Source: Patescibacteria group bacterium
GTDB taxonomy: Bacteria > Patescibacteriota > Minisyncoccia > Minisyncoccales > UBA5738
Length of the DNA: 64,000 nucleotides
Direction of reading: 5' to 3'
Assembly: GCA_022710775.1 (NCBI GenBank)
Contig: JAKLGH010000001.1
Span: 5,824 to 69,823 of the forward strand
Below are positions 4,059 to 59,990 of this stretch, in pieces. Each line of letters opens with the position of its first letter. The first letter of the stretch is position 1. The notes under the pieces are model-generated. The model worked only from the letters and a program-made list of their open reading frames with translations. It made no database searches and was not told the DNA's origin. Made by a program: the position numbers and the translations under genes.

Positions 4059-4796
4059 TTAAAACTTGAACAATGATGCCAGGTAGTCAGCTATCGATTG
4101 GAATAATCCTTTCTTCGGGTTTTCAGTAGTAACAGTAATGCCCGGCTTTTCTCCGTTAGCTTCTACATCGCCTTCCGGGGTGATAGTGATCTCGGGCGTA
4201 ACTTCTTTGGGAGATGCGGGCTCGATTATTGCATTTTCAGACGGCTGCTCTGCTTGATCGGATGCTTGGTTTGCAACGTCCTCCGGTTGTTGGGCTTTTT
4301 CCGCCGGTTCAGTCTTCACTTCGGCAGGCGCTTCTTTGTTTTGGCTTGCACCTTGGGATCCGGCCTTCTGGGCCATCAGCTTTTCCGTAAGAGCGTTTAT
4401 CTCCTTTTTAATTTCGGCTATTCTCTCATTAGCGTCAACTGTGGTGGCCGGAGTTTTAGCGGCAACGGTGTTAGGATGGGCGGCCACATAAGCTTGAACC
4501 TTCTGTGCCAGGATTTCTTTTTCCTTGGCGATGCGCTGGACTTCGGCGGCGATCTCGGCCAGCGTCATTTTTTTAACCGGCGCTTCGGCTTGTTTTGCTT
4601 GAATTTTCGCGGTAAGCTCGGCTATCGTTTTTTGAAGGGTATCTATCTTGGCTTTCAATTGGGCTGTTTTTGCCTGTTCATCCGCTGCTTGCGTTGAAGT
4701 GCTAGCGTCCGCGTAGGCTTTCGGTGCCGAAGCTCCCAAAAAACCGAACGCTAGCATTATTGCCGATAATACGATAATTGCTTTATTTCGCTTCAT
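4059..4796 (-). CDS. Secreted coiled-coil protein of unknown function
   Basis: 245-aa ORF with a signal peptide ending AYA-DA. A long K/A/E/Q-rich heptad-like helical region (QLKAKIDTLQKTIAELTAKIQAKQ) is followed by an acidic tail. Confidence 0.6.
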   Translation of the reverse strand: MKRNKAIIVLSAIMLAFGFLGASAPKAYADASTSTQAADEQAKTAQLKAKIDTLQKTIAELTAKIQAKQAEAPVKKMTLAEIAAEVQRIAKEKEILAQKVQAYVAAHPNTVAAKTPATTVDANERIAEIKKEINALTEKLMAQKAGSQGASQNKEAPAEVKTEPAEKAQQPEDVANQASDQAEQPSENAIIEPASPKEVTPEITITPEGDVEANGEKPGITVTTENPKKGLFQSIADYLASLFKF

Positions 4797-4905
4797 AATA
4801 TTTTATCTGCTTCCTCCCTTTTTTAAATTAACGATGATGGTTGATCCGGCAGTTTATCAGTCGACCGCGCATATTGGCGCTAAACCTAGCCGGATCGTTT
4901 CATGA

Positions 4906-5508
4906 TCATCCTTTCGAATTGTCATCTGGCTGGTCTTCTTGCGGCTTAACGGTGTCTAAGGGTTGTTTAACTTGGCTGGAATCATCGCTTTTTGCCTCTA
5001 TTTTCTTTTTCTTCAATTCTTTTTTGATGGATTTAACCTCTTCGATAACGATCAGCAGAAGCGGAATGGCAACAATGAAGAAAAAACCGATTGGTTTTCG
5101 CACAGCCGAAACCGCGTATCCTACGTAAGGTAAAGTGAGAAAAACTTTGCCGTGCACCGATTTTTCCGCAATTTCTTTGGCGTCGATTGATTCATTAGCA
5201 TCGCCTTTGGTGATGAAATATGTCTGGCCGTTAACAACTTTAACCTCCTTTATCCGATGCGTAACCGGTATTTTATCCTTGCCGATCGCGCCGTATGTAA
5301 CAACATCGCCGATCTTATATGAATCCGCCGGCTTAATCGCTACAATACTGCCGGTTTTAATCGCAGGCTCCATAGAACCCGACAGGACGGTTAACACGAT
5401 ATAATTCCCTTTAGCGGGAATTAAAGAAACCAAAAAAAATGCCGCGAACGAAAAGATCAATGATAAAAATGCATAATACAAAATATGAAAAACCGCAGAG
5501 ATTTTCAT
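4906..5508 (-). CDS. sipW: Signal peptidase I, SipW / archaeal-ER type (copy 1)
   Basis: 200 aa with an N-terminal TM, the catalytic Ser box LSGSMEPAIKTGSIV, the His box PVTHRI, and a C-terminal TM plus charged tail. Confidence 0.85.
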   Translation of the reverse strand: MKISAVFHILYYAFLSLIFSFAAFFLVSLIPAKGNYIVLTVLSGSMEPAIKTGSIVAIKPADSYKIGDVVTYGAIGKDKIPVTHRIKEVKVVNGQTYFITKGDANESIDAKEIAEKSVHGKVFLTLPYVGYAVSAVRKPIGFFFIVAIPLLLIVIEEVKSIKKELKKKKIEAKSDDSSQVKQPLDTVKPQEDQPDDNSKG

Positions 5509-5660
5509 AAGAGTTCGATCTGTCTATCCAAAAAACAGAAACAGCGGCTTTCAGCCATTAAATTTATCGTTGCGGGATGGGACTCATCCTCTTTAAGTAC
5601 TAATACCAAAGTCCGATTATTTTGTAAATGCTTTTTTACGTGATACCGGAAAAATCCGCA

Positions 5661-5776
5661 AGGCTATTATTTTATTAATTTGTAGACCCCGGGACAAGCC
5701 CTTGGAACAAATTAATGAGGAGTCCAGAGGAAACATCCTCTGGTCGCCTCCCGGGGCTCTGCCCCGGGGTAGTTAA
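5661..5776 (+). repeat. Intergenic structured element, copy A (family shared with 59790-59990 and, more distantly, 61430-61606)
   Basis: ATTTTATTAATTTGTAGACCCCGGGACAAGCCCTTGGAACAA matches the reverse complement of 59946-59989 at about 40 of 44 positions. It also shares the hairpin AGAGGAaacaTCCTCTGGTCGCC and a terminal CCCGGGGCtctGCCCCGGGG hairpin. Confidence 0.55.
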
Positions 5777-6526
5777 TTATTGTTCTTCAATGGCCGCATT
5801 GCCCAAAAATTTCTTTAAACCTTTATCGAATATTATGTTGCGGACAAAGGCTTCATAAGCAATTATCTCGGTTGGGAGATTGCTGATTGCCAAAAATTGC
5901 TTACGTTCGGTGATCGAAAAATTCCTTGATCCCAGGTTTTCTTTAATGCTGTTAAAAGGGCTTTTTAAAATTTGGCCGAATGAAGCATCGAAATTGCCAA
6001 GAACCGTCCTGTTAGGCAGCAACTCCAGAGGATTAAGAACCTGGATATACGTATCAACATATTGCAAATAGCGCACTCCGTTTATTAGCCGTGCTTGGTA
6101 GGACCCTTGGAAAACCTTGCCTGATTCGCTGTATTTAACATTGAAATAAGCGGTATAGCCATTGCCCAATTTTTTGATAAAGGCCGATATTCCTCCGGGG
6201 ATAATCTCTCTCAACAGCAAATGGTAATGGTTTGGCATCAACGCGTAGCTGACTATTTCAGCCAGCGGCTCCTGCTTGGGCCAATACTCCGGCCAACGAA
6301 AAAAATTGGGGCTGTTGAGGTTTGACCTCAACAGATTTCTCGGCGAGTATAGCTGGCGCAAAAGGTTTAGCGATGACCGGCTATCGTTAAAGAATCGTAA
6401 TATTGTGAGCATTCGCCACCGATCTTTGTCATCCAAAAAAATCGGCATTTTCCGATTGCCGCAATTATACACATGAACAAAATCTCCAACGTTAAAAGGC
6501 TCTTTCCTCATAGGACAATAGGACAC
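5777..6526 (-). CDS. REP-associated tyrosine transposase (RAYT; IS200/IS605-like Y1 HUH family)
   Basis: 249 aa with the HUH motif MPNHYHLLL and the catalytic-Tyr region YVDTYIQVLNP. The N-terminal strand FVHVYNCGNRKMPIF is present. REP hairpins lie immediately upstream, and one lies inside the ORF. Confidence 0.8.
   Translation of the reverse strand: MSYCPMRKEPFNVGDFVHVYNCGNRKMPIFLDDKDRWRMLTILRFFNDSRSSLNLLRQLYSPRNLLRSNLNSPNFFRWPEYWPKQEPLAEIVSYALMPNHYHLLLREIIPGGISAFIKKLGNGYTAYFNVKYSESGKVFQGSYQARLINGVRYLQYVDTYIQVLNPLELLPNRTVLGNFDASFGQILKSPFNSIKENLGSRNFSITERKQFLAISNLPTEIIAYEAFVRNIIFDKGLKKFLGNAAIEEQ
6312..6334. repeat. REP hairpin copy embedded in-frame in the RAYT ORF
   Basis: CTGTTGAGGTTTGACCTCAACAG. 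The RAYT reading frame stays open through it (peptide ...LLRSNLNSP...). Confidence 0.85.
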
Positions 6527-6554
6527 AATTAATACGCCAATCTACCCCAAAACC

Positions 6555-6639
6555 CTGTTGAGGTCAAACCTCAACAGAAATTGGTCAAACCTCAACAGAA
6601 ATTGCCTCACAAAACTTGTTGAGGTTTGACCTCAACAAG
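6555..6639. repeat. REP cluster (2 full copies and 1 partial copy) upstream of the RAYT gene
   Basis: CTGTTGAGGTCAAACCTCAACAG (6555-6577), a partial GGTCAAACCTCAACAG (6583-6598) and CTTGTTGAGGTTTGACCTCAACAAG (6615-6639). The spacer AAATTGCCTCACAAAA is shared, inverted, with the other doublets. Confidence 0.9.
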
Positions 6640-6802
6640 TTTTGGCTTCAACAAGTAGGGTTATACTAAAGCCGCCTTCTTTGAGGAGAATTGGCGCTAA
6701 TTTGCGTTGTATTGAAACAATGCGGTTTAAATGGTCATTCTTCCCTTTTGAACCATTAATATGTCCTATGAGCAAATAAATGGCTTTAACGGGCATTTCT
6801 AT

Positions 6803-6833
6803 AACAAAAGCGCGCAGAGCTTGCCGCGCGCTT
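6803..6833 (-). terminator. Rho-independent terminator of the 6867..7868 gene
   Basis: Minus strand reads AGCGCGCggcaagctctGCGCGCTTTTGTTAT. Confidence 0.6.
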
Positions 6834-6866
6834 TCTTTGGAACGTTTTTCCTCTTAAATATATCGG

Positions 6867-7868
6867 CTAATCGGCGCTGTCGAACTCTTCGGCTGCGCCC
6901 AACACAATGATCTGTACGGCCGACATTGTTTTTTCCGTCGAGTTAACATCGATGACCCCGCGAGCTTTAACGATATCCCCCACTTCGATATCGGCGAGCG
7001 TTGCGGCAACATCGTTCTTGACAATCTTTGCGTTTGCGGCGGGCGTTACGATGTAATCACCCGTATTTTTTCCGTTATTTACCGTAACCGTGATAGATGT
7101 GCCCGAAGCGGCTGAAACGGTGCCGGTAACCGCCAAATTAAAAGACCCGGCAATGCCGATCCTGGCTGCCTCTATTTCACCGCTGGCATTAAGCGGACCA
7201 ACGGCAATAACGGCAATGCCGTTTACCAAATCGGCCTTTGCGGCGGTTTCTCCGCGTTTCTTGATTACGGTCGCGGCACTCACATTTACTTTAATCGTTC
7301 CCTGCGTCAATCCCTTTTTCTGAAGGGTGATAGTAGTGATGTCGGAGGCGGCGCCGTCGACGGCTATGATAACGCCGGCGATATGCTTGATGCCTTTAAC
7401 GCGCTTATCGCCCTCGGCAACCACAGGTTTTTTGTCGTTGATAATGATGTTAGTTGCTTCAATAATGTTGTTGGCTAAAGCGCCTTTTACTCCGATATTC
7501 TGCCCAACCTCCAAATCGGCCGTTGTTGCCGCTTCTCCATTCATGAGAGTAATTTTGGTGGCCGTGCTGATTTTAACGGTAAGAGGCGCGGCGCTATTTG
7601 CGCCGATCGTTAACGTGAGGCTGGATTTATCGGCCGCAATGTCGGAAATCTCGCCCTTTACCCCCTTGTCGGCTTTTCCCAGGCGGCTGATCAACGATTG
7701 AATCTGGTTTCTAAGCGAGTCAGCCGTTTCTTTCAGGCTGGCCATAAGGCCGGCGGAGACGGATGCCGATTCGCAATCCTTGCATTTTTGAGCGCCAGCC
7801 ACAAAGGCCGGTGCGGCAGAGGCTAAAATTACAGAACATAGAATATAAGCAATAATTTTTTTATCCAT
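6867..7868 (-). CDS. Secreted repeat protein (DUF5666-like beta domains)
   Basis: 333 aa with a signal peptide. It has four repeats of a module of about 60 aa with the pattern ...T.I....a.aadL.vG..v.v.G......ieA..I.i (for example ATKITLMNGEAATTADLEVGQNIGVKGALANNIIEATNIII). Confidence 0.55.
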   Translation of the reverse strand: MDKKIIAYILCSVILASAAPAFVAGAQKCKDCESASVSAGLMASLKETADSLRNQIQSLISRLGKADKGVKGEISDIAADKSSLTLTIGANSAAPLTVKISTATKITLMNGEAATTADLEVGQNIGVKGALANNIIEATNIIINDKKPVVAEGDKRVKGIKHIAGVIIAVDGAASDITTITLQKKGLTQGTIKVNVSAATVIKKRGETAAKADLVNGIAVIAVGPLNASGEIEAARIGIAGSFNLAVTGTVSAASGTSITVTVNNGKNTGDYIVTPAANAKIVKNDVAATLADIEVGDIVKARGVIDVNSTEKTMSAVQIIVLGAAEEFDSAD

Positions 7869-8049
7869 GCTTTTTATTTATAAAATGATCAATATTTAAA
7901 AGCCGTTGCAGCGATATATGCCGACCATTAATAAAATCGCCGATATTATGAGGCTTGATTATATTATTATAATACGATTGCCGCGAACAGCAAACAAACG
8001 AAAGCAGCTTGACAAACTAGCTTAAAATTACGTTAAATAACAACAAAAA

Positions 8050-8115
8050 CTTGTTGAGGTCAAACCTCAACAAGTTTTTGTGAGGAAATTGCTGTTGAGG
8101 TTTGACCTCAACAAG
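8050..8115. repeat. REPIN (inverted REP doublet)
   Basis: CTTGTTGAGGTCAAACCTCAACAAG + TTTTTGTGAGGAAATTG + CTGTTGAGGTTTGACCTCAACAAG. Confidence 0.9.
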
Positions 8116-8172
8116 TAGCGGGTGGATAAAATAAAGCCGCGGTTTTTCTGCCGGCGGCTTAAATATTGTTGC

Positions 8173-8550
8173 CTAAATTTGTGATAAAGCTCGTTCTCTG
8201 GCGATAAGGCTGTTATCGCGTTTCGCCTTGATGTTGGACATGATCTCGGTCATCAGATCGATAACTTCATTGTCTCCGGCATTTTTTGTGTCAACTTCGA
8301 AGTTGACAATGATATCGCCGATCTTTGGAACTTCACCGAACCTGACCGAGCCTTCAATTTTGGTGTTATCAAGGAGAACGCAATGTATCCAGTCGACAGC
8401 CAGCGAGATACCGCTGTCATCAATTGTTAAGGCTGAAAACGCTTGATTTTCTGACCTATTTATTTCGTGGAGACTCAAGATCTCAAGATTTTCCTTTTTT
8501 GAAAATTCCCGGGCTTTTTTCAAAACCAGTATATCGCCTGCATCCATCAA
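8173..8550 (-). CDS. Small cytoplasmic hypothetical protein flanked by REPINs on both sides
   Basis: 125-aa ORF with no signal peptide and no motif I recognise. A hairpin plus T-run lies downstream (about 8134-8160, minus strand). Confidence 0.5.
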   Translation of the reverse strand: MMDAGDILVLKKAREFSKKENLEILSLHEINRSENQAFSALTIDDSGISLAVDWIHCVLLDNTKIEGSVRFGEVPKIGDIIVNFEVDTKNAGDNEVIDLMTEIMSNIKAKRDNSLIARERALSQI

Positions 8551-8604
8551 AATTCACCATCAACATTATATAATGTTTGCTTAATATCGTCAAGGGAAAT
8601 TTAG

Positions 8605-8668
8605 CTGTTGAGGTCAAACCTCAACAAGTATTTATGAGGCAAATTCTGTTGAGGTTTGACCTCAACAG
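8605..8668. repeat. REPIN (inverted REP doublet)
   Basis: CTGTTGAGGTCAAACCTCAACAAG + TATTTATGAGGCAAATT + CTGTTGAGGTTTGACCTCAACAG. Confidence 0.9.
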
Positions 8669-8675
8669 ATTTGGG

Positions 8676-8705
8676 GGAAGAAAAAGCCCCCTTATACAGG
8701 GGGGC
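8676..8705 (-). terminator. Rho-independent terminator of the adhesin gene
   Basis: Minus strand reads GCCCCCCtgtataaGGGGGCTTTTTCTT. Confidence 0.65.
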
Positions 8706-8713
8706 TTTTGGGG

Positions 8714-11700
8714 TTAGAAGATGGAGAGGAAGGCTTTTAGCAGGGCTAGGAGGCTAAAACCTGATGAGGAGTGGGGAGAAACGCCTTTTGGCGGGGCGGA
8801 ATAAACGGGTATTTGCTTTACCGCGGCCGGGGCGTAGAGTTTTACGTCTTTGTCGGGGAGCGAGTAGGATTCGGCGGAGGGATATTGCGACGGGTCAAGA
8901 TCGCCGCCTACTCCGGTGGATACGGTCATAGCGCCTTCAACCATCTTTAGCCTCATAAAATCGGAAACGGAATTAGAGAGATCATGGATCTGCTGTTTAA
9001 GCAGGGCGAGATTAGCGGCGATTTCGTCGAGGGACCACTGCTCGGTAGAAGCGCCGGCCACTTGGGGCGCGACACCGCTGCCGGATCCGCCGCCGGACGT
9101 GTAGCTGGAACGCTTATGGGTGCTGGTTTTATGGGTTGTGGTGGCGTTATCGTCATCATCGCCGGAGTCATCATCACCAGTATCGTCATCAGCCGTGTCA
9201 TCATCTGCATCGTCACCAGAGTCATCGCCGGAGTCATCATCCCCTGTGCTGTCATCGTCGCCCGTATCGTCGTCATCGGCCGTGTCATCACCAGTGTCAT
9301 CGCCGGTATCGTCATCGCCAGTGTCGTCAGACTGGTCGCAGACATCGCCGAAGCCATCGTTGTCAGTGTCGGATTGGCCGGCATTGGCGTTAGCGGGGCA
9401 ATTGTCGCAGACATCGCCGATTCCGTCGCCGTCGGCATCAACCTGATCGGCATTGGCAACGTTAGGACAGTTGTCGGCGGGGTCAAGAATGCCGTCATTG
9501 TCGGTATCGATGCCGGAATCGTCATCATCGCCAGTGTCATCATCTCCGGTGTCATCGCCGGAATCATCATCCCCTGTACTGTCATCATCTCCGGTGTCGT
9601 CATCGCCAGTTGAATCATCGTCGCCGGTCGAGTCGTCATCGCCGGTGTCGTCACCGGTATCGAGACAATCGGCGCTTTCCACAGCTTGAGATGTGTCGGC
9701 GCAATAATCGAAATCTGTGGTTTGGCTGCGGGTTTGGTTCATCCAGCCCGAAGGTTCGGCGCAACCGGCATTGGTCCAACCGGTATAAGCGCAGGCGCAA
9801 GAGGCGTCGGCTTCGTTTACCGGCGAGGTGTAATGGCAATAATGGTAGTTGCCGCCGTAGGTTACGCTGGCTTGGCCGTCGGAGCTGCAGGTGCGGCCGG
9901 TCTCAATTTTTTGGCAAGCGCACCCAGAGTCCGGGACTCTGTCAGTTCGGTCGGCGCCGCAGTAGGAGAAATTGTAGTAAATATAATGGTCGCGGTAGCC
10001 GTCGGCAGAGCAATCAGCGGAGGGATTGTCGGTTTCCACGCAATTGCAAGCCGGGTCATCTAGGTCGCGGGTTTCGGTATTGGATTTGCCGTACTGGTCG
10101 GTGCAAGTCCGGGTTTGGTGCCTGATGCCGTCGGCGGAGCAAGAGCCGGACCAGTCGCCGCAATTATAATTGGAATCGCAGGAATTATCGGAAATCTGGG
10201 CGGAATAGTTTGCGGGGCAATAGGTGAAATTATATTCGTAATTTGCCGTAGCTATGCCGTCGCCGGTGCATGCGCGGGATTTTTCAGCCGCGGCGCAGGC
10301 GCAAGAGGGTTCAGGGTAAGTGGTTGTGCCGCCGGTCAAACCGCAATGGGCGTAGTTCCAGGTATAATCTTTCGAAGCCGTGCCGTCAGCGGTGCAAACA
10401 GGCGAACCATAAACTTTTTGGCAGGCAGGACTGTTGTAAAATACGCAGGAAACGATATCGAGATCGTCAACGTCGATTCCGGTTATGGTTTGGCTTGCCA
10501 AGTCAAAAGCGCCGTTTGAGCCGCTGGAGCCTGTACAGGACGCGGCAGCCAATTTATAATCGGAAGCAGCCGAATTTTCGGCTACGCTGAACGGGCCGTC
10601 TTCATCGTCAACGTCAACCGAAGGCGCGTTGCCCTCATCATTAGTCGTTATATCGGTTGAAAAACCGGTTGCTGTAATATTAAAATTCCAATTGGCAACC
10701 ACATCGCCGGCCGTGGTTTGATCGCCGGTGGTAGCGGGATCGCCGTCGGTATCAATGACCTTGCGGATATTAATGGTACCGCCGCAAAGCGCGGTGCTTA
10801 AATCGGCCAATACACTGCCCAGGGTGGAAATATCACCCATATATACGTCGGCATCGTTAATATCGGAAATGGTTGATACAACCTTAGGGCCGGAAATAAG
10901 CTTTAGATTTTCCAGATTAAGGCCGCCCGCGGTTCCATGGCTGTCAACGCCGATGACCAGAACGCGGCTGTCGGTCTTAATAGCATTGGCGGCGACAATC
11001 GCATCAAAAAGATGGCTCATTGGGCCAGAACTTTCGGTAGGATTTCCATCAGTAATTAAAATCACAAGATCGTTATTTCCAGCCATGGTATCAGCGGTTT
11101 TAAGGGCAGCTTCCCAATTGGTACTACCACTCCTTGAGATACCATTTATGTAACTAGTAATTTGGGCTAAATCTGCGGTAGGGGCAAGGGATTGGACAAC
11201 AGAAGTATCAAATTCAATGACGCCAACTTTTGACGGAGTAGCTGGAATTAATTTTTCAACCAAGGTATTGGAATAGTCTTTAACTAATTGGATATCTGCA
11301 GGGCTTAGGCTGTTTGAACTGTCAAGCAGGAGTATAATGTTTGAGCCGCATGTATTTGTCATAGCGGGGTTCTGTGCCGGAACAACACCAGGGATATATT
11401 TAATCGTAACCGATATTTCAGATACAACGGCTGGCGAGGACCCTGAAGTTTTCTCTACACCAAAATACATAGAATTAACACTATCAATAGTCCAGGTGTT
11501 ACCATTGAATGGGTTGGTAGCCAACGGCAAAGTCAAGTTAGCAAAATCGGCAGAGTCGAGATTATATTCTATATTATTCGAATAATAATTGCCGCTGCCC
11601 GGTCCTTTTTCAAGAAAAAGCTTCACGGTTGCTGAATTCATTATCGAAGTTGTAGCACGCACCGACAAATCAACCGATTGGATCACGGAATTGGAAGCTA

Positions 11701-26722: not shown

Positions 26723-26785
26723 CTGTTGAGGTCAAACCTCAACAGGGTTTAAGCTTGAATATTTGTTGAGGTTTGACCTCAACAG
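26723..26785. repeat. REPIN (inverted REP doublet)
   Basis: CTGTTGAGGTCAAACCTCAACAG + GGTTTAAGCTTGAATAT + TTGTTGAGGTTTGACCTCAACAG. Confidence 0.9.
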
Positions 26786-27120: not shown

Positions 27121-27825
27121 ATGAATCCGAAACCAAACAACCATAAAGCCGGAAGATCGGAGCCAACCGTGCAGCTGATGGTTAACGACTACGACATGCT
27201 GCGCCTGGCGGGAAAATTACTGACGCTGACAAACAGCGTGTTCGCAAAAAGAAATACGCCGGAATTTAACAGCAAGGAAAATAAATATATTCAAGGTTTG
27301 CTGTTAACTCTGAACGATTGGTGGCTTAGCGAAACCCGAGACGGAAGCCGCGTACCCGGAAGTACCAGCGCCCACGTCTTGGGCTCGGCGGCGGCCTACA
27401 GCATGATACTGGCCAAGCGGTTGAAAACCCAAGCAGATCGCGCAAATGCTGACGATATCAAAAGCATGCGCCAAGCCGTCATTACTGCCTACGATATAAC
27501 GGTGATGCTAAGGTGCTTGACCGATAACGCGCAAGGCATCAATATGCGACCCGCCGTAAACCGCTACTTTGACGGAGTTACGGCTGTCTTAGCTGGCGAG
27601 GAGGCAGATTTAGCCGAATATGAAAAGGATATTCCAAAGCTCTACAAATATCCGTCTATCGCGCGGGTATTCACAATGACCACGGATATCGGAGGCGGAG
27701 GAGACCTTCGTTACTATTATCAGCGAAGGCCCGATGGAAGCGAGCAAGTTTACGCCGGATCCGATGAAGCCGGAAAACTTTTTATCAGAGCGATGAATAA
27801 AGCCAAGCAAAAGAGAGGTAAATAA
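27121..27825 (+). CDS. Hypothetical cytoplasmic protein, paralog 1 of a tandem pair (no family recognised)
   Basis: 234 aa. It shares EPTV.L, AGK, LL..N.W, R.GS.VP, LG....MIL and YAG...AGK blocks with 28040..28741. It has its own RBS and terminator. Confidence 0.75.
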   Translation: MNPKPNNHKAGRSEPTVQLMVNDYDMLRLAGKLLTLTNSVFAKRNTPEFNSKENKYIQGLLLTLNDWWLSETRDGSRVPGSTSAHVLGSAAAYSMILAKRLKTQADRANADDIKSMRQAVITAYDITVMLRCLTDNAQGINMRPAVNRYFDGVTAVLAGEEADLAEYEKDIPKLYKYPSIARVFTMTTDIGGGGDLRYYYQRRPDGSEQVYAGSDEAGKLFIRAMNKAKQKRGK

Positions 27826-27867: not shown

Positions 27868-27887
27868 GTTAACAGCCCCGCTGACGT

Positions 27888-27949
27888 GTTGAGGTCAAAC
27901 CTCAACAGGAAGTTCCCGAACAAAATCTGTTGAGGTTTGACCTCAACAG
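27888..27949. repeat. REPIN (inverted REP doublet)
   Basis: GTTGAGGTCAAACCTCAACAG + GAAGTTCCCGAACAAAAT + CTGTTGAGGTTTGACCTCAACAG. Confidence 0.9.
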
Positions 27950-28039: not shown

Positions 28040-28741
28040 ATGGCAGATAATTCAGCGGAAGCAGGCAAAAAGATGATCGAACCTACCGTCAGACTGGAAA
28101 TTACGGCAGAACAGGTGTTGTTGTTCGCGGGCAAGTCAATGAATTTGTTTGCAACATTGTTCGGAAAGCAATTCGAATACTCAAGTAAGCTGGCAAACGC
28201 CAAGTCGCAGTTGCTTTGGGTCAATAATTGGTTGCGAAACGCCACTCGCGGCGGATCGGTGGTGCCCCAAGAGACAAACGTCTGGAAGCTGGGAGCGACT
28301 TTGGGACATTGCATGATTCTGCACATAATGACCCAGGAGCTTGCAAATAAGGTGAGCGAGGCGGATAAACAATGTCTGGAACGCGCCGTCATGAATGCCC
28401 GGGGCATGATAAATATGCTCAACCGCTGGGTCGAGGAGTCGGACGGTATAAGCGAGAATCGCAAACTACGGCGCTTTTATCATGGATTCGCCGTAGCGCT
28501 TGTCAGGGGAAACGTATCGATGACCGATTACATCGATCTGTTGCCAAATATGCCGGGCAGTCCGATATTGGTTCAGGTTTTGTCGATGACACTGGGTTCC
28601 CCCAACGAGTTCATATATTGCGAAAGCGACTTTGGCGGAGACCGGCTTTACGCCGGAAAAAACCAGGCCGGAAAATGGTTGGCGCAAATGCTCACGAACG
28701 TAAAAAGCGGAAAGGCGAACGCCGAGAACACTTCGGCATAA
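28040..28741 (+). CDS. Hypothetical cytoplasmic protein, paralog 2 of the tandem pair
   Basis: 233 aa, roughly 25-30% identical by eye to 27121..27825 along its full length. Confidence 0.75.
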   Translation: MADNSAEAGKKMIEPTVRLEITAEQVLLFAGKSMNLFATLFGKQFEYSSKLANAKSQLLWVNNWLRNATRGGSVVPQETNVWKLGATLGHCMILHIMTQELANKVSEADKQCLERAVMNARGMINMLNRWVEESDGISENRKLRRFYHGFAVALVRGNVSMTDYIDLLPNMPGSPILVQVLSMTLGSPNEFIYCESDFGGDRLYAGKNQAGKWLAQMLTNVKSGKANAENTSA

Positions 28742-28848: not shown

Positions 28849-29259
28849 TTATTTCAATTCCACTTTCGCGCCGGCGGCTTCGAATTTTTTCTTCATTTCC
28901 TCGGCCTCTTCCTTTTTGGCGTTCTCCTTTACCACCTGGGGGGCGGCAGCCGAAGCGTCAACGAGGTCTTTGGATTCTTTTAAACCCTTCTGGGTAATGT
29001 CGCGGACAACCTTGATCACTTCGATCTTCTTGTCTCCGGGAGCGGCAAGCACAACCGTGAAGGATGTTTTCTCTTCCGCGGCGGGAGCGGCGGCTCCGGC
29101 GGCGGCGCCAGCCACCATAACGGGAGCGGCGGCGGATACGCCGAACTTCTGCTCAAGGATCTTAACCAGCTCGGCCAAGTCCAAAACTGACATTTCTTCG
29201 ATCTTTTTCACGAGGTCGGCGAATTTTGCCGGAACCTCGACTTTTTCTGCGTCTGCCAT
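28849..29259 (-). CDS. rplL: 50S ribosomal protein L7/L12
   Basis: 136 aa with an Ala-rich hinge ([14 protein letters not shown]) and the C-terminal domain [24 protein letters not shown]...[12 protein letters not shown]. Confidence 0.95.
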
Positions 29260-29322
29260 TTTTTTATTGTATGCGCCCGGTTTTATAGGGATAAACCCTT
29301 CGGCCGGACGTACGGTTAATAT

Positions 29323-29841
29323 TTATTCAGCTTTCTTGATCTGCGATAAGGCGCGCACCAAACCCGTGATATTGGCCTGCAAAACGTAGGCAAAATTGCG
29401 GGCCGGGCTGGACATACTGCCAACCATATTGGCCAGCAATTGCTGGCGGCTGGGAAGCATTGCCAGCGCCTGAACCTCGGATAAACCGATTTCCTTGTTT
29501 TCCAGATAACCGCCAAGGATCTTAATAAACTTGTTGGTCCTGGAAAACTCGTAAACCACCCGGGCCGGAGACACCTCGTCGGAGTAACCCATTACGAGAG
29601 CTATCTCCCCCTGCATCTTTTTGGGATCGGCGGCAATTTTCTTATCCTTGAAAACGATAGTCATCAAGGTTTTTTTGGCCACTTTGAGCTCGGCTCCGTT
29701 TTCGCGAAGCTTTTTCTTGAGCTCGACCATGTCTTTTACTTTAAGGCCGGTAAAATCGGCAAAAACCATCGCTTTCTGTTTGGCGACTTTTTCGCCCAGC
29801 GATTTCACTATTTCTTTTTTCTTATCTTTTGATATCGCCAT
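29323..29841 (-). CDS. rplJ: 50S ribosomal protein L10
   Basis: 172 aa, MAISKDKKKEIVKSLGEKVAKQKAMVFADFTGLKVKDMVELKKKLRENGAELKVAKKTL, immediately upstream of rplL. Confidence 0.9.
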   Translation of the reverse strand: MAISKDKKKEIVKSLGEKVAKQKAMVFADFTGLKVKDMVELKKKLRENGAELKVAKKTLMTIVFKDKKIAADPKKMQGEIALVMGYSDEVSPARVVYEFSRTNKFIKILGGYLENKEIGLSEVQALAMLPSRQQLLANMVGSMSSPARNFAYVLQANITGLVRALSQIKKAE

Positions 29842-59789: not shown

Positions 59790-59990
59790 CCCTGGGTACG
59801 AACCCCCGGCGGTGACCGAAGGAAATCCCGAAGCATTGAGGGGCGGCCAGAGGATGCTTCCTCCCCCGCATGATGCGGAGCGGAGTACCTAAGTCCTCCT
59901 CCTTTCTTCCCGCTTTTTTGCGGGAAGGAAACTGTAAGTTTCCTTTTGTTCCTAGGACTTGCCCAGGGTCTGCAAATTAATAAAATTAAA
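59790..59990 (-). repeat. Intergenic structured element, copy B (homologous to 5661-5776, with inserted hairpins)
   Basis: Minus strand reads ATTTTATTAATTTGCAGACCCTGGGCAAGTCCTAGGAACAA...GGAGGAagcaTCCTCTGGCCGCC...CCCAGGG. The 5' CCCTGGG and 3' CCCAGGG can pair, where copy A has CCCCGGG / CCCGGGG. Confidence 0.55.

Follow-up and report, generated by a model that had tools for sequence, protein, structure and literature searches.

A probable non-canonical RAYT/REP-type pairing of a Y1 HUH nuclease with a dispersed hairpin in Patescibacteria

The locus and its nuclease

The stretch of DNA considered here, hereafter the window, comprises 64,000 nt of contig JAKLGH010000001.1 (positions 5,824 to 69,823 of the forward strand) from a Patescibacteria group bacterium of the UBA5738 lineage, and all coordinates without a contig handle are those of the window. 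It holds one copy of a gene for a Y1 HUH tyrosine nuclease resembling the REP-associated tyrosine transposases (RAYT) and TIRYT proteins, together with a family of short perfect palindromes that lie in front of the gene, inside it and at a distance from it. An earlier note on this DNA, made from the sequence alone, had taken nuclease and palindromes for a probably active system of repetitive extragenic palindromes (REP) and their RAYT; we consider it probable that enzyme and hairpin are cognate and make up a RAYT/REP (REPtron) type of system, one whose non-canonical form occurs widely among Patescibacteria.

The nuclease gene (5777..6526, minus strand) is an open reading frame (ORF) of 249 aa when read from the GTG at 6526, but the ATG at 6511, giving 244 aa, is likely to be the true start, because homologues begin at MRKEP. 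Both motifs that the earlier note had assigned to the protein are present, namely an HUH motif NHYH (N99-H100-Y101-H102; 6221..6232, minus strand) and a catalytic-tyrosine motif YIQVLNP (Y160-IQVL-N165-P166; 6029..6049, minus strand), and the Pfam profile Y1_Tnp (PF01797) matches at 28.9 bits against a cutoff of 23 (E 1.3e-6). We retrieved 181 homologues, and in an alignment of 56 homologues residues N99, H100, H102, Y160 and N165 are invariant. An AlphaFold (AF2) model built on 56 homologues, with a mean confidence (pLDDT) of 87.4, predicts a Y1 core followed by a helical C-terminal extension. The top match of this model among solved structures in Foldseek is the Escherichia coli TnpA_REP protein in complex with its REP hairpin (4er8_A; E 4.7e-6, TM 0.68 on the target), followed by the TnpA structures of IS608 and ISDra2, with 4ER8, 2A6M and 2XMA all at a Foldseek probability of 1.00. 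Searching PDB sequences with the single protein or with a profile gave only a marginal ISDra2 match around the HUH motif, so the classification depends on the predicted fold. With an HUH motif and a single catalytic tyrosine in a Y1_Tnp fold, the protein belongs to the Y1 HUH superfamily.

The nuclease family is large: a profile search of 1.84 billion cluster representatives yielded 1165 members (clusters at 50% identity) at E <= 1e-30 and 12455 at E <= 1e-10. The gene is present once in the window and once per genome among the captured GTDB loci. A protein identical to that of the window is annotated in a metagenome-assembled genome (MAG) of Candidatus Paceibacterota, on a 404-kb contig, which bears out the earlier suggestion of a reduced host resembling the candidate phyla radiation (CPR). 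The public annotation of this identical protein (P0002) starts at Met39 and gives 211 aa without the conserved first beta-strand (FVHVYNCGNRK); since a start at Met39 drops the first strand of the fold, it was probably mis-called.

A palindrome family in the window

A search of the window with the pattern TGTTGAGGTNNNACCTCAACA, allowing up to 2 mismatches, found 11 copies of the palindrome TGTTGAGGT-NNN-ACCTCAACA, all of them exact, starting at 6313, 6556, 6617, 8052, 8093, 8606, 8647, 26724, 26764, 27887 and 27928. The count of at least 11 given earlier is thus confirmed, with coordinates shifted by 1–2 nt. None of 100 dinucleotide-preserving shuffles of the window contained a match, and the number expected is 0; relaxing the search to 4 mismatches revealed no degenerate copies in the window. 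The sole additional half-site in the window is a 3' arm, ACCTCAACA, at 6589, which corresponds to the partial copy previously placed near 6583. The base preceding TGTTGAGGT in the 11 copies is C, T or G.

Ten of the 11 copies are arranged as five inverted doublets, with the loop CAA preceding the loop TTG. The gap between the paired 21-mers is 19–20 nt, except in the first doublet, D1 (6556..6637), which is longer because of a 21-nt partial duplication; D1 lies upstream of the nuclease gene and consists of hairpins at 6556–6576 and 6617–6637 with the 3' arm repeated at 6589–6597. Doublet D2 (8052..8113) is located between a gene of 124/125 aa and a DUF5666 gene, and D3 (8606..8667) between a gene for a VWA surface protein of 1100 aa and the same 124/125-aa gene. 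D4 (26724..26784) was identified by exact pattern match and by its fold, and D5 (27887..27948) separates two genes that appear to be paralogues and is about 1 kb away from rplL/rplJ. The genes on either side of D5 (27121–27825 and 28040–28741) have similar, paralogue-like N-termini and no Pfam match. The second hairpin cluster therefore adjoins core genes (rplL/rplJ region, 28849–29841), and the claim that all copies fall in an accessory island is weak.

D1 (inverted), D2 and D3 have related spacers (..TGAGG.AAATT..), as had been noticed before. Folded as single-stranded DNA, each doublet other than D1 gives one long hairpin of -24.6 to -26.9 kcal/mol (z -7.8 to -10.1; D2 has -26.9 kcal/mol and z -10.1), while D1 folds as two separate hairpins (-27.5 kcal/mol, z -6.5). 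The doublets thus have the form of REPINs, that is, inverted pairs of REPs with a short spacer that are able to fold as one long hairpin. An Rfam scan of 5400–8900 detected no known RNA family, the long hairpins giving only sub-threshold matches to miRNA precursors.

In several genomes many copies of the hairpin are immediately adjoined by a short, partial repeat of the 3' arm (..ACCTCAAC..), at 6583–6603 in the window, at 4352–4365 in locus L023, at 6712–6725 and 7587–7600 in L012, at 7425–7450 in L051, and also in L026 and L020. Such repeats could be products of slippage or footprints of cleavage and rejoining.

Pairing of hairpin and gene across the family

Loci of homologues were collected from a metagenome scan (80 loci; 29–49% identity) and, in addition, through GTDB and exact look-ups, and about 90 were examined with an unbiased scan for hairpins (perfect stem of at least 8 bp, loop of 3–5 nt). 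Of 80 loci, 52 have a hairpin in the 100 nt preceding the start, and of 73 loci, 42 have one in the 60 nt past the stop; the upstream and downstream hairpins share the top of the stem in 25 of 67. Among control windows placed elsewhere in these loci, only 7 of 165 contain a hairpin. The loop measures 3 nt in 96 of 103 hairpins. The stems are lineage-specific and very diverse (TGTTGAGGT, TGTTGAAGT, TGGCAACGT, TAGCGATAT, TTCGGAACC, TGTAGAGAC, AAAAGGGTC and TGAGGGACG among them). Enzyme and hairpin change together across dozens of lineages, and the layout of the family is that of a REPtron or TIRtron with self-complementary repeats.

The 18 specified bases of the window's palindrome occur in 53 stretches of GTDB species genomes, 45 of which are in Patescibacteria; the other 8 compare with about 9 matches expected by chance (596 Gb / 4^18), and their loops are mostly not of the form Y-N-R. 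The Patescibacteria loci are mostly of the Parcubacteria type (Yanofsky-, Nomura- and Lloydbacteria, Paceibacterota). The loop of this palindrome is specific to the lineage (CAA/TTG, TAG/CTA, CAG/CTG, CGG/CCG and TTA/TAA). Each related genome has 4–13 exact copies distributed over several contigs, with the homologue gene on only one of those contigs. Two findings had been named beforehand as speaking against a REP/RAYT system, namely an ordinary IS200 transposase and absence of the hairpin from the rest of the genome; the hairpin is found on contigs of related genomes that lack the gene, and the protein, as set out below, is not an ordinary IS200 transposase.

The doublets of a Nomurabacteria MAG are direct tandem units of flank plus hairpin (39–46 nt) rather than inverted pairs (L043, 4220/4259; L012, 7520/7566).

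Copies within and in front of the gene

The eleventh copy in the window (6313..6333) lies inside the nuclease gene. It was listed in the earlier note, but its place inside the ORF went unremarked there. It is read in frame as LLRSNLNS (aa 65–72), in a loop between a helix (33–45) and a strand (89–96), and residues 61–70 form a low-confidence loop of the AF2 model (pLDDT 57). Perfect hairpins of at least 9 bp inside homologue genes all lie at aa 58–68 (about +170 nt); a hairpin at this fixed site is found in 19 of 84 testable loci, with differing stems, and in each locus the stem of the internal copy is that of the locus's own flanking hairpin. In JAHIOY the internal copy even shares a lineage-specific extension of the stem, GGAA...TTCC. 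Over the 19 loci 95.8% of cells pair, and both sides change in 9 of 10 pairs; none of 500 shuffles reached this level, and registers slid along the alignment dropped to 26–44% paired. As these 19 loci were picked for having a hairpin, the unbiased evidence is the concentration at one position and the match to the flanking copies.

The orientation of the loop differs between loci (LLRSNLNS in the window versus LLRFDLNS in L023), and the intragenic hairpin occurs in all three reading frames (L051, L124); the different frames and orientations indicate that what is conserved is the DNA and not the peptide. In L076, L061 and L056 the internal copy has 1–2 mismatches while the flanking copies are still perfect, and such decaying copies continue to track the flanking hairpin. 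The internal copy is missing from a subclade with a shorter linker (e.g. L012), which still keeps the flanking hairpin. Most likely the intragenic copy goes back to an old insertion of a REP, in frame, into a permissive loop; the copy has been kept matched in many lineages and is dispensable or decaying in others. That it is instead a selected cis-element, the nuclease carrying its own recognition site both in its coding sequence and at the -35 region, seems to us doubtful. If the intragenic site were selected, its role might be that of an autoregulatory switch; alternatively it might be a master copy through which enzyme and substrate stay co-inherited and from which the dispersed family is reseeded. 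On this reading, pairs of hairpins could also be the enzyme's recombination sites for the gain and loss of single-gene cassettes in minimal genomes.

In front of the gene a consensus scan marked a promoter-like site, TTGACC-17 nt-TAGATT (6539..6567, minus strand; 9 of 12 matches), the -35 hexamer TTGACC of which falls within the proximal hairpin, in its loop and 3' arm. The promoter scan as a whole showed no enrichment, with 8 sites found versus 6.1 expected in shuffles. L023 has TTGACC-17-TAAAAT in the same place, and -10-like boxes follow the hairpin in many homologue loci. A -35 element within the hairpin would suggest autoregulation of the nuclease gene.

Comparison of related strains

Contig L134 (89% amino acid and 84% nucleotide identity) shows synteny with the window from the nuclease gene towards the DUF5666 gene, and L135–137 (65% amino acid identity) show it towards the S24-peptidase gene; the gene therefore stands at a fixed chromosomal site, and we regard its vertical inheritance as probable, together with the explanation of which it is part. 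D2 has orthologues in L144 and L145 and D3 in L145, and the doublet of L134 that is orthologous to D1 is without the 21-nt duplication; no difference from the window is seen in L138 and L139 (D4/D5 region) or in L140. In the orthologous stems of L134, L135, L144 and L145 there are 3 mismatches in 252 positions versus about 40 expected from the divergence of the flanks (p = 1.7e-15), the flanking DNA of matching hairpins being 70–92% identical between strains. Because orthologous hairpins are equally perfect in spite of diverged flanks, the identity of the copies reflects conservation and not recent spread.

A single strain difference was found, an indel with hairpins at either end. Segment 8073..8646, which consists of the inner halves of D2 and D3 and the 124/125-aa gene (8173–8550), is absent from L134, and blastn places its ends exactly at the outer hairpins of D2 and D3; at the corresponding site L134 (251–330) has one hybrid hairpin, in which the outer flank of the 8647 copy is joined to the outer flank of the 8052 copy. 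The segment is present in L144 (83% nucleotide identity) and in L145 (92%). The simpler reading, with a polarity taken from three relatives only, is a hairpin-to-hairpin deletion in the L134 lineage rather than insertion of a cassette, as L144 and L145 both have the segment. The 124-aa product of the enclosed gene (ATG start) is on protein record, and its exact 125-aa form (TTG start) is not. The description of the system as probably active is not supported, the hairpins being equally perfect in diverged strains and the sole difference found between strains being an indel that is most simply a deletion.

A further rearrangement is seen in L023 (UBA5738), where ~100 nt from the beginning of the nuclease gene occur twice, together with the upstream doublet (4279–5104). 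The duplicates bracket a toxin–antitoxin-like pair of genes (108 aa and 82 aa), and the truncated copy of the gene ends inside a second palindrome, GATATTGTGCGCGACAATATC. Short-read assemblies end at doublets (L141–L143, L135–L137), the hairpins fragmenting MAG assemblies; examples are a 1462-bp contig with the DUF5666 gene alone and contigs that start 75 nt upstream of the nuclease gene. In L144 an extra ~350 nt (1948–2300; an ORF of 69 aa and a terminator) separate the DUF5666 gene from the doublet that in the window lies ahead of the nuclease gene, which is further evidence that the region is plastic. Viral contigs contain neither a copy of the hairpin nor a relative of the nuclease gene, and a phage-borne origin was rejected on this ground.

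Discussion

Our current working hypothesis is that the enzyme, a class-2 Y1 HUH nuclease of about 244 aa whose gene is inherited vertically and present in one copy, has as its presumed substrate the 21-nt perfect palindrome TGTTGAGGT-YNR-ACCTCAACA. The sites available to it would be the one ~45 nt upstream of the start codon, whose loop would give the -35-like TTGACC, the one in frame within the gene, in what is predicted to be a surface loop, and the inverted REPIN-like doublets, intergenic and downstream of terminators. By analogy with E. coli TnpA_REP and IS608 TnpA, the enzyme would bind the hairpin in single-stranded DNA, Tyr160 and an HUH-bound metal would cut beside it, and the strands would then be rejoined; rarely, such cutting and rejoining might copy or recombine DNA bounded by hairpins. 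Binding and cleavage by the nuclease are accordingly to be read as putative.

The protein is probably a class-2 Y1 HUH enzyme and is not an IS200 transposase. The class-2 tyrosine motif is Y-x-x-x-N-P (Quentin et al., 2018), and the window protein, with Y-I-Q-V-L-N-P, has one residue more, distant members of the homologue set (P0053, P0056) having YIH[LF]NP. Judged by its motifs only, it most resembles the long TnpA_Y1 proteins of subclass 2.1, or TIRYT. Subclass 2.1 (Quentin et al., 2018; PMC6006769) is the same as RAYT Group 1 (Bertels et al., 2017; PMC5581495) and comprises most TIRYT/TIRtrons (Di Nocera et al., 2013; PMC3733652); it is characterized by NH[YF]H, by FQ or W[EQ], by Y[IV]HLNP, by a length of ~238 aa and by a C-terminal extension with a conserved serine motif (PMC6006769). 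The nuclease family shares with it the length (~240 aa; 244–249 here), the HUH motif as NHYH, a helical C-terminal extension, FQ (here FQG) instead of WQ/WE, Y[IV]H[LF]NP in the distant members P0053 and P0056, and a proximal C-terminal serine motif (family consensus PFSSLGE, YRWSS in distant members). The window protein departs from it in the longer tyrosine motif and in having SPFNSI where the family consensus is PFSSLGE. As in TIRtrons, the repeats bracket the gene at fixed distances; unlike the terminal inverted repeats of GGGGWSAS type given in the papers on subclass 2.1 and TIRtrons, those described here are dispersed self-complementary hairpins. REP-like sequences for subclass 2.1 were not found by automatic or manual search (Quentin et al., 2018; PMC6006769).

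With REPtrons, as represented by the E. coli TnpA_REP/RAYT/YafM protein (4ER8) with REP/BIME sequences and by Pseudomonas RAYT with REPINs, the system has in common the Y1 HUH fold with one catalytic tyrosine, a gene that is single-copy and syntenic, a flanking hairpin that is also dispersed in the genome (D1 lies 45 nt upstream of the gene, the other doublets at 8.0, 8.6, 26.7 and 27.9 kb), inverted doublets that form a long hairpin, and covariation of enzyme and hairpin between lineages. It differs in that the nuclease is ~80 aa longer, with a helical C-terminal domain and one extra residue in YIQVLNP, in that the hairpins are perfect stems of 9–10 bp with a 3-nt loop and no GT[AG]G foot, in having ~10 copies per genome versus hundreds, and in its host, Patescibacteria as opposed to Proteobacteria. 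Subclass 2.4 of Cyanobacteria and Bacteroidetes likewise has a REP inside the nuclease gene, in a peripheral loop and without a break in the reading frame. The source paper calls such an intragenic REP unique to 2.4; the copy described here differs from it in preceding the HUH motif and in occupying one fixed site (~+170 nt) in about one-fifth of a different, longer subfamily.

Several observations weigh against a system of this type. The protein scores 15.4 bits against the NCBIfam RAYT equivalog (NF047646, REP_Tyr_transpos), for which the cutoff is 80, and for this reason it is not a canonical gammaproteobacterial RAYT. No GT[AG]G or CGTC tetranucleotide is conserved at the foot of the hairpin over the 11 window copies, and no cleavage site or target-site signature is identifiable at the hairpins. 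The clade of the window lacks the downstream hairpin, unlike most of the family. With 11 copies in the window and ~4–13 exact copies per related genome, the numbers are far below those of classical REP populations. Among the window and the few related contigs compared with it (L134, L138–140, L144, L145), insertion polymorphism was not seen, and 11 identical copies with orthologous doublets do not show the mutational spread and insertion polymorphism of a REPIN population. Finally, covariation of the stem is expected equally of a duplex site bound by a protein dimer, the sites being near-perfect palindromes. What remains of the REP/RAYT assignment of the earlier note is a single-copy Y1 enzyme with a flanking and dispersed hairpin; the match to the RAYT equivalog and the GT[AG]G foot are missing.

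The covariation of stems cannot separate binding of single-stranded DNA from the main rival explanation. The palindromes might be duplex operator or architectural sites for a dimeric protein, either the nuclease itself through its helical C-terminal domain or some other factor, and would then mark a small regulon or a structural motif instead of having arisen by single-strand transposition. The near-perfect symmetry of the sites, with 3-nt loops that are always self-complementary Y-N-R, would suit such a role, as would the overlap of the proximal copy with the -35 region of the gene's own promoter-like site, the conservation of orthologous copies far beyond that of their flanks, the lack of decayed copies in the window and the HTH-like (helix-turn-helix) C-terminal domains reported in subclass 2.1 (Quentin et al., 2018; PMC6006769). 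Most copies, however, lie downstream of terminators and not at promoters, one lies inside an ORF and does so in three frames across lineages, and the protein has no match to a Pfam HTH domain. Inverted doublets, tandem duplications of flank plus hairpin and partial duplications of the arm are, moreover, typical of repeat proliferation, and the invariant HUH and tyrosine residues argue for nuclease chemistry. We consider this explanation unlikely.

Less likely again is an autonomous insertion sequence (IS) of the IS200/IS605 type, with the order hairpin, tnpA, hairpin, of which the dispersed hairpins would be solo ends or derivatives resembling miniature inverted-repeat transposable elements. 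The TnpA proteins of this group (IS608, ISDra2) do share the Y1 HUH fold, and their single-strand "peel and paste" chemistry is the model for the mechanism proposed above. Throughout the family identical subterminal hairpins stand on either side of the gene (at about -45 and just past the stop), in the manner of the left and right ends of IS200, and L023 has a truncated second copy of the 5' end of the gene. Yet subclass 1.1 TnpA proteins have a Y-x-x-x-Q motif, a core of ~150 aa and several near-identical copies, and here there is a protein of ~244 aa with Y...NP, no tnpB gene and one copy, in the window as in each genome among the captured GTDB loci, at the same chromosomal position in genomes with 65–89% protein identity. 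The RAYT structure outranks those of IS608 and ISDra2, the gene is absent from viral contigs, and the window copy is without a downstream hairpin.

That the hairpins are host transcription terminators or mRNA-stabilizing stem-loops found near a Y1 gene by chance is very improbable: terminator-like calls do fall on two of the sites (8043–8081, minus strand; 8606–8626, plus strand) and copies are intergenic between same-strand genes, but three intergenic regions each already have a separate GC-rich terminator beside the doublet, a T run follows some copies only, one copy is within an ORF, and the hairpin sequence tracks the Y1 gene over dozens of lineages. On general knowledge we also rejected CRISPR or TIGR arrays (there are two units per site, interrelated spacers and no associated genes) and integron attC sites (an integrase is lacking, and these palindromes are both short and perfect).

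A cognate RAYT/REP-type pair in Patescibacteria would be of interest for several reasons. REP/RAYT systems have been characterized almost only in Proteobacteria, with some work in Cyanobacteria, and in the limited literature that could be searched we found no description of one in the CPR. Subclass 2.1, or Group 1, is the largest Y1 group and has been without an identified DNA partner; a long, subclass-2.1-like Y1 family found widely in Patescibacteria and systematically bracketed by a lineage-specific perfect hairpin makes these hairpins candidate substrates for an orphan group of enzymes. From dozens of natural, co-varying enzyme–hairpin pairs the recognition rules, or code, of a Y1 HUH nuclease could be read. 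Very compact genomes, too, would then keep a small, strongly conserved REP population, the copies of which mark sites of gene-sized rearrangement, and the fixed in-frame intragenic copy is an unusual and easily tested feature.

Neighbouring DNA

On the other side of the nuclease gene, about 105 nt (5675–5779) separate its stop codon from the S24-peptidase gene. This stretch contains many hairpins of the CCCCGGGG type, has TTAATT at both ends and is missing at the corresponding position of L134; the initial ~43 nt of it recur at 59945–59986 (minus strand) with 88% identity. The stretch could represent a small mobile element of its own or else a structured RNA.

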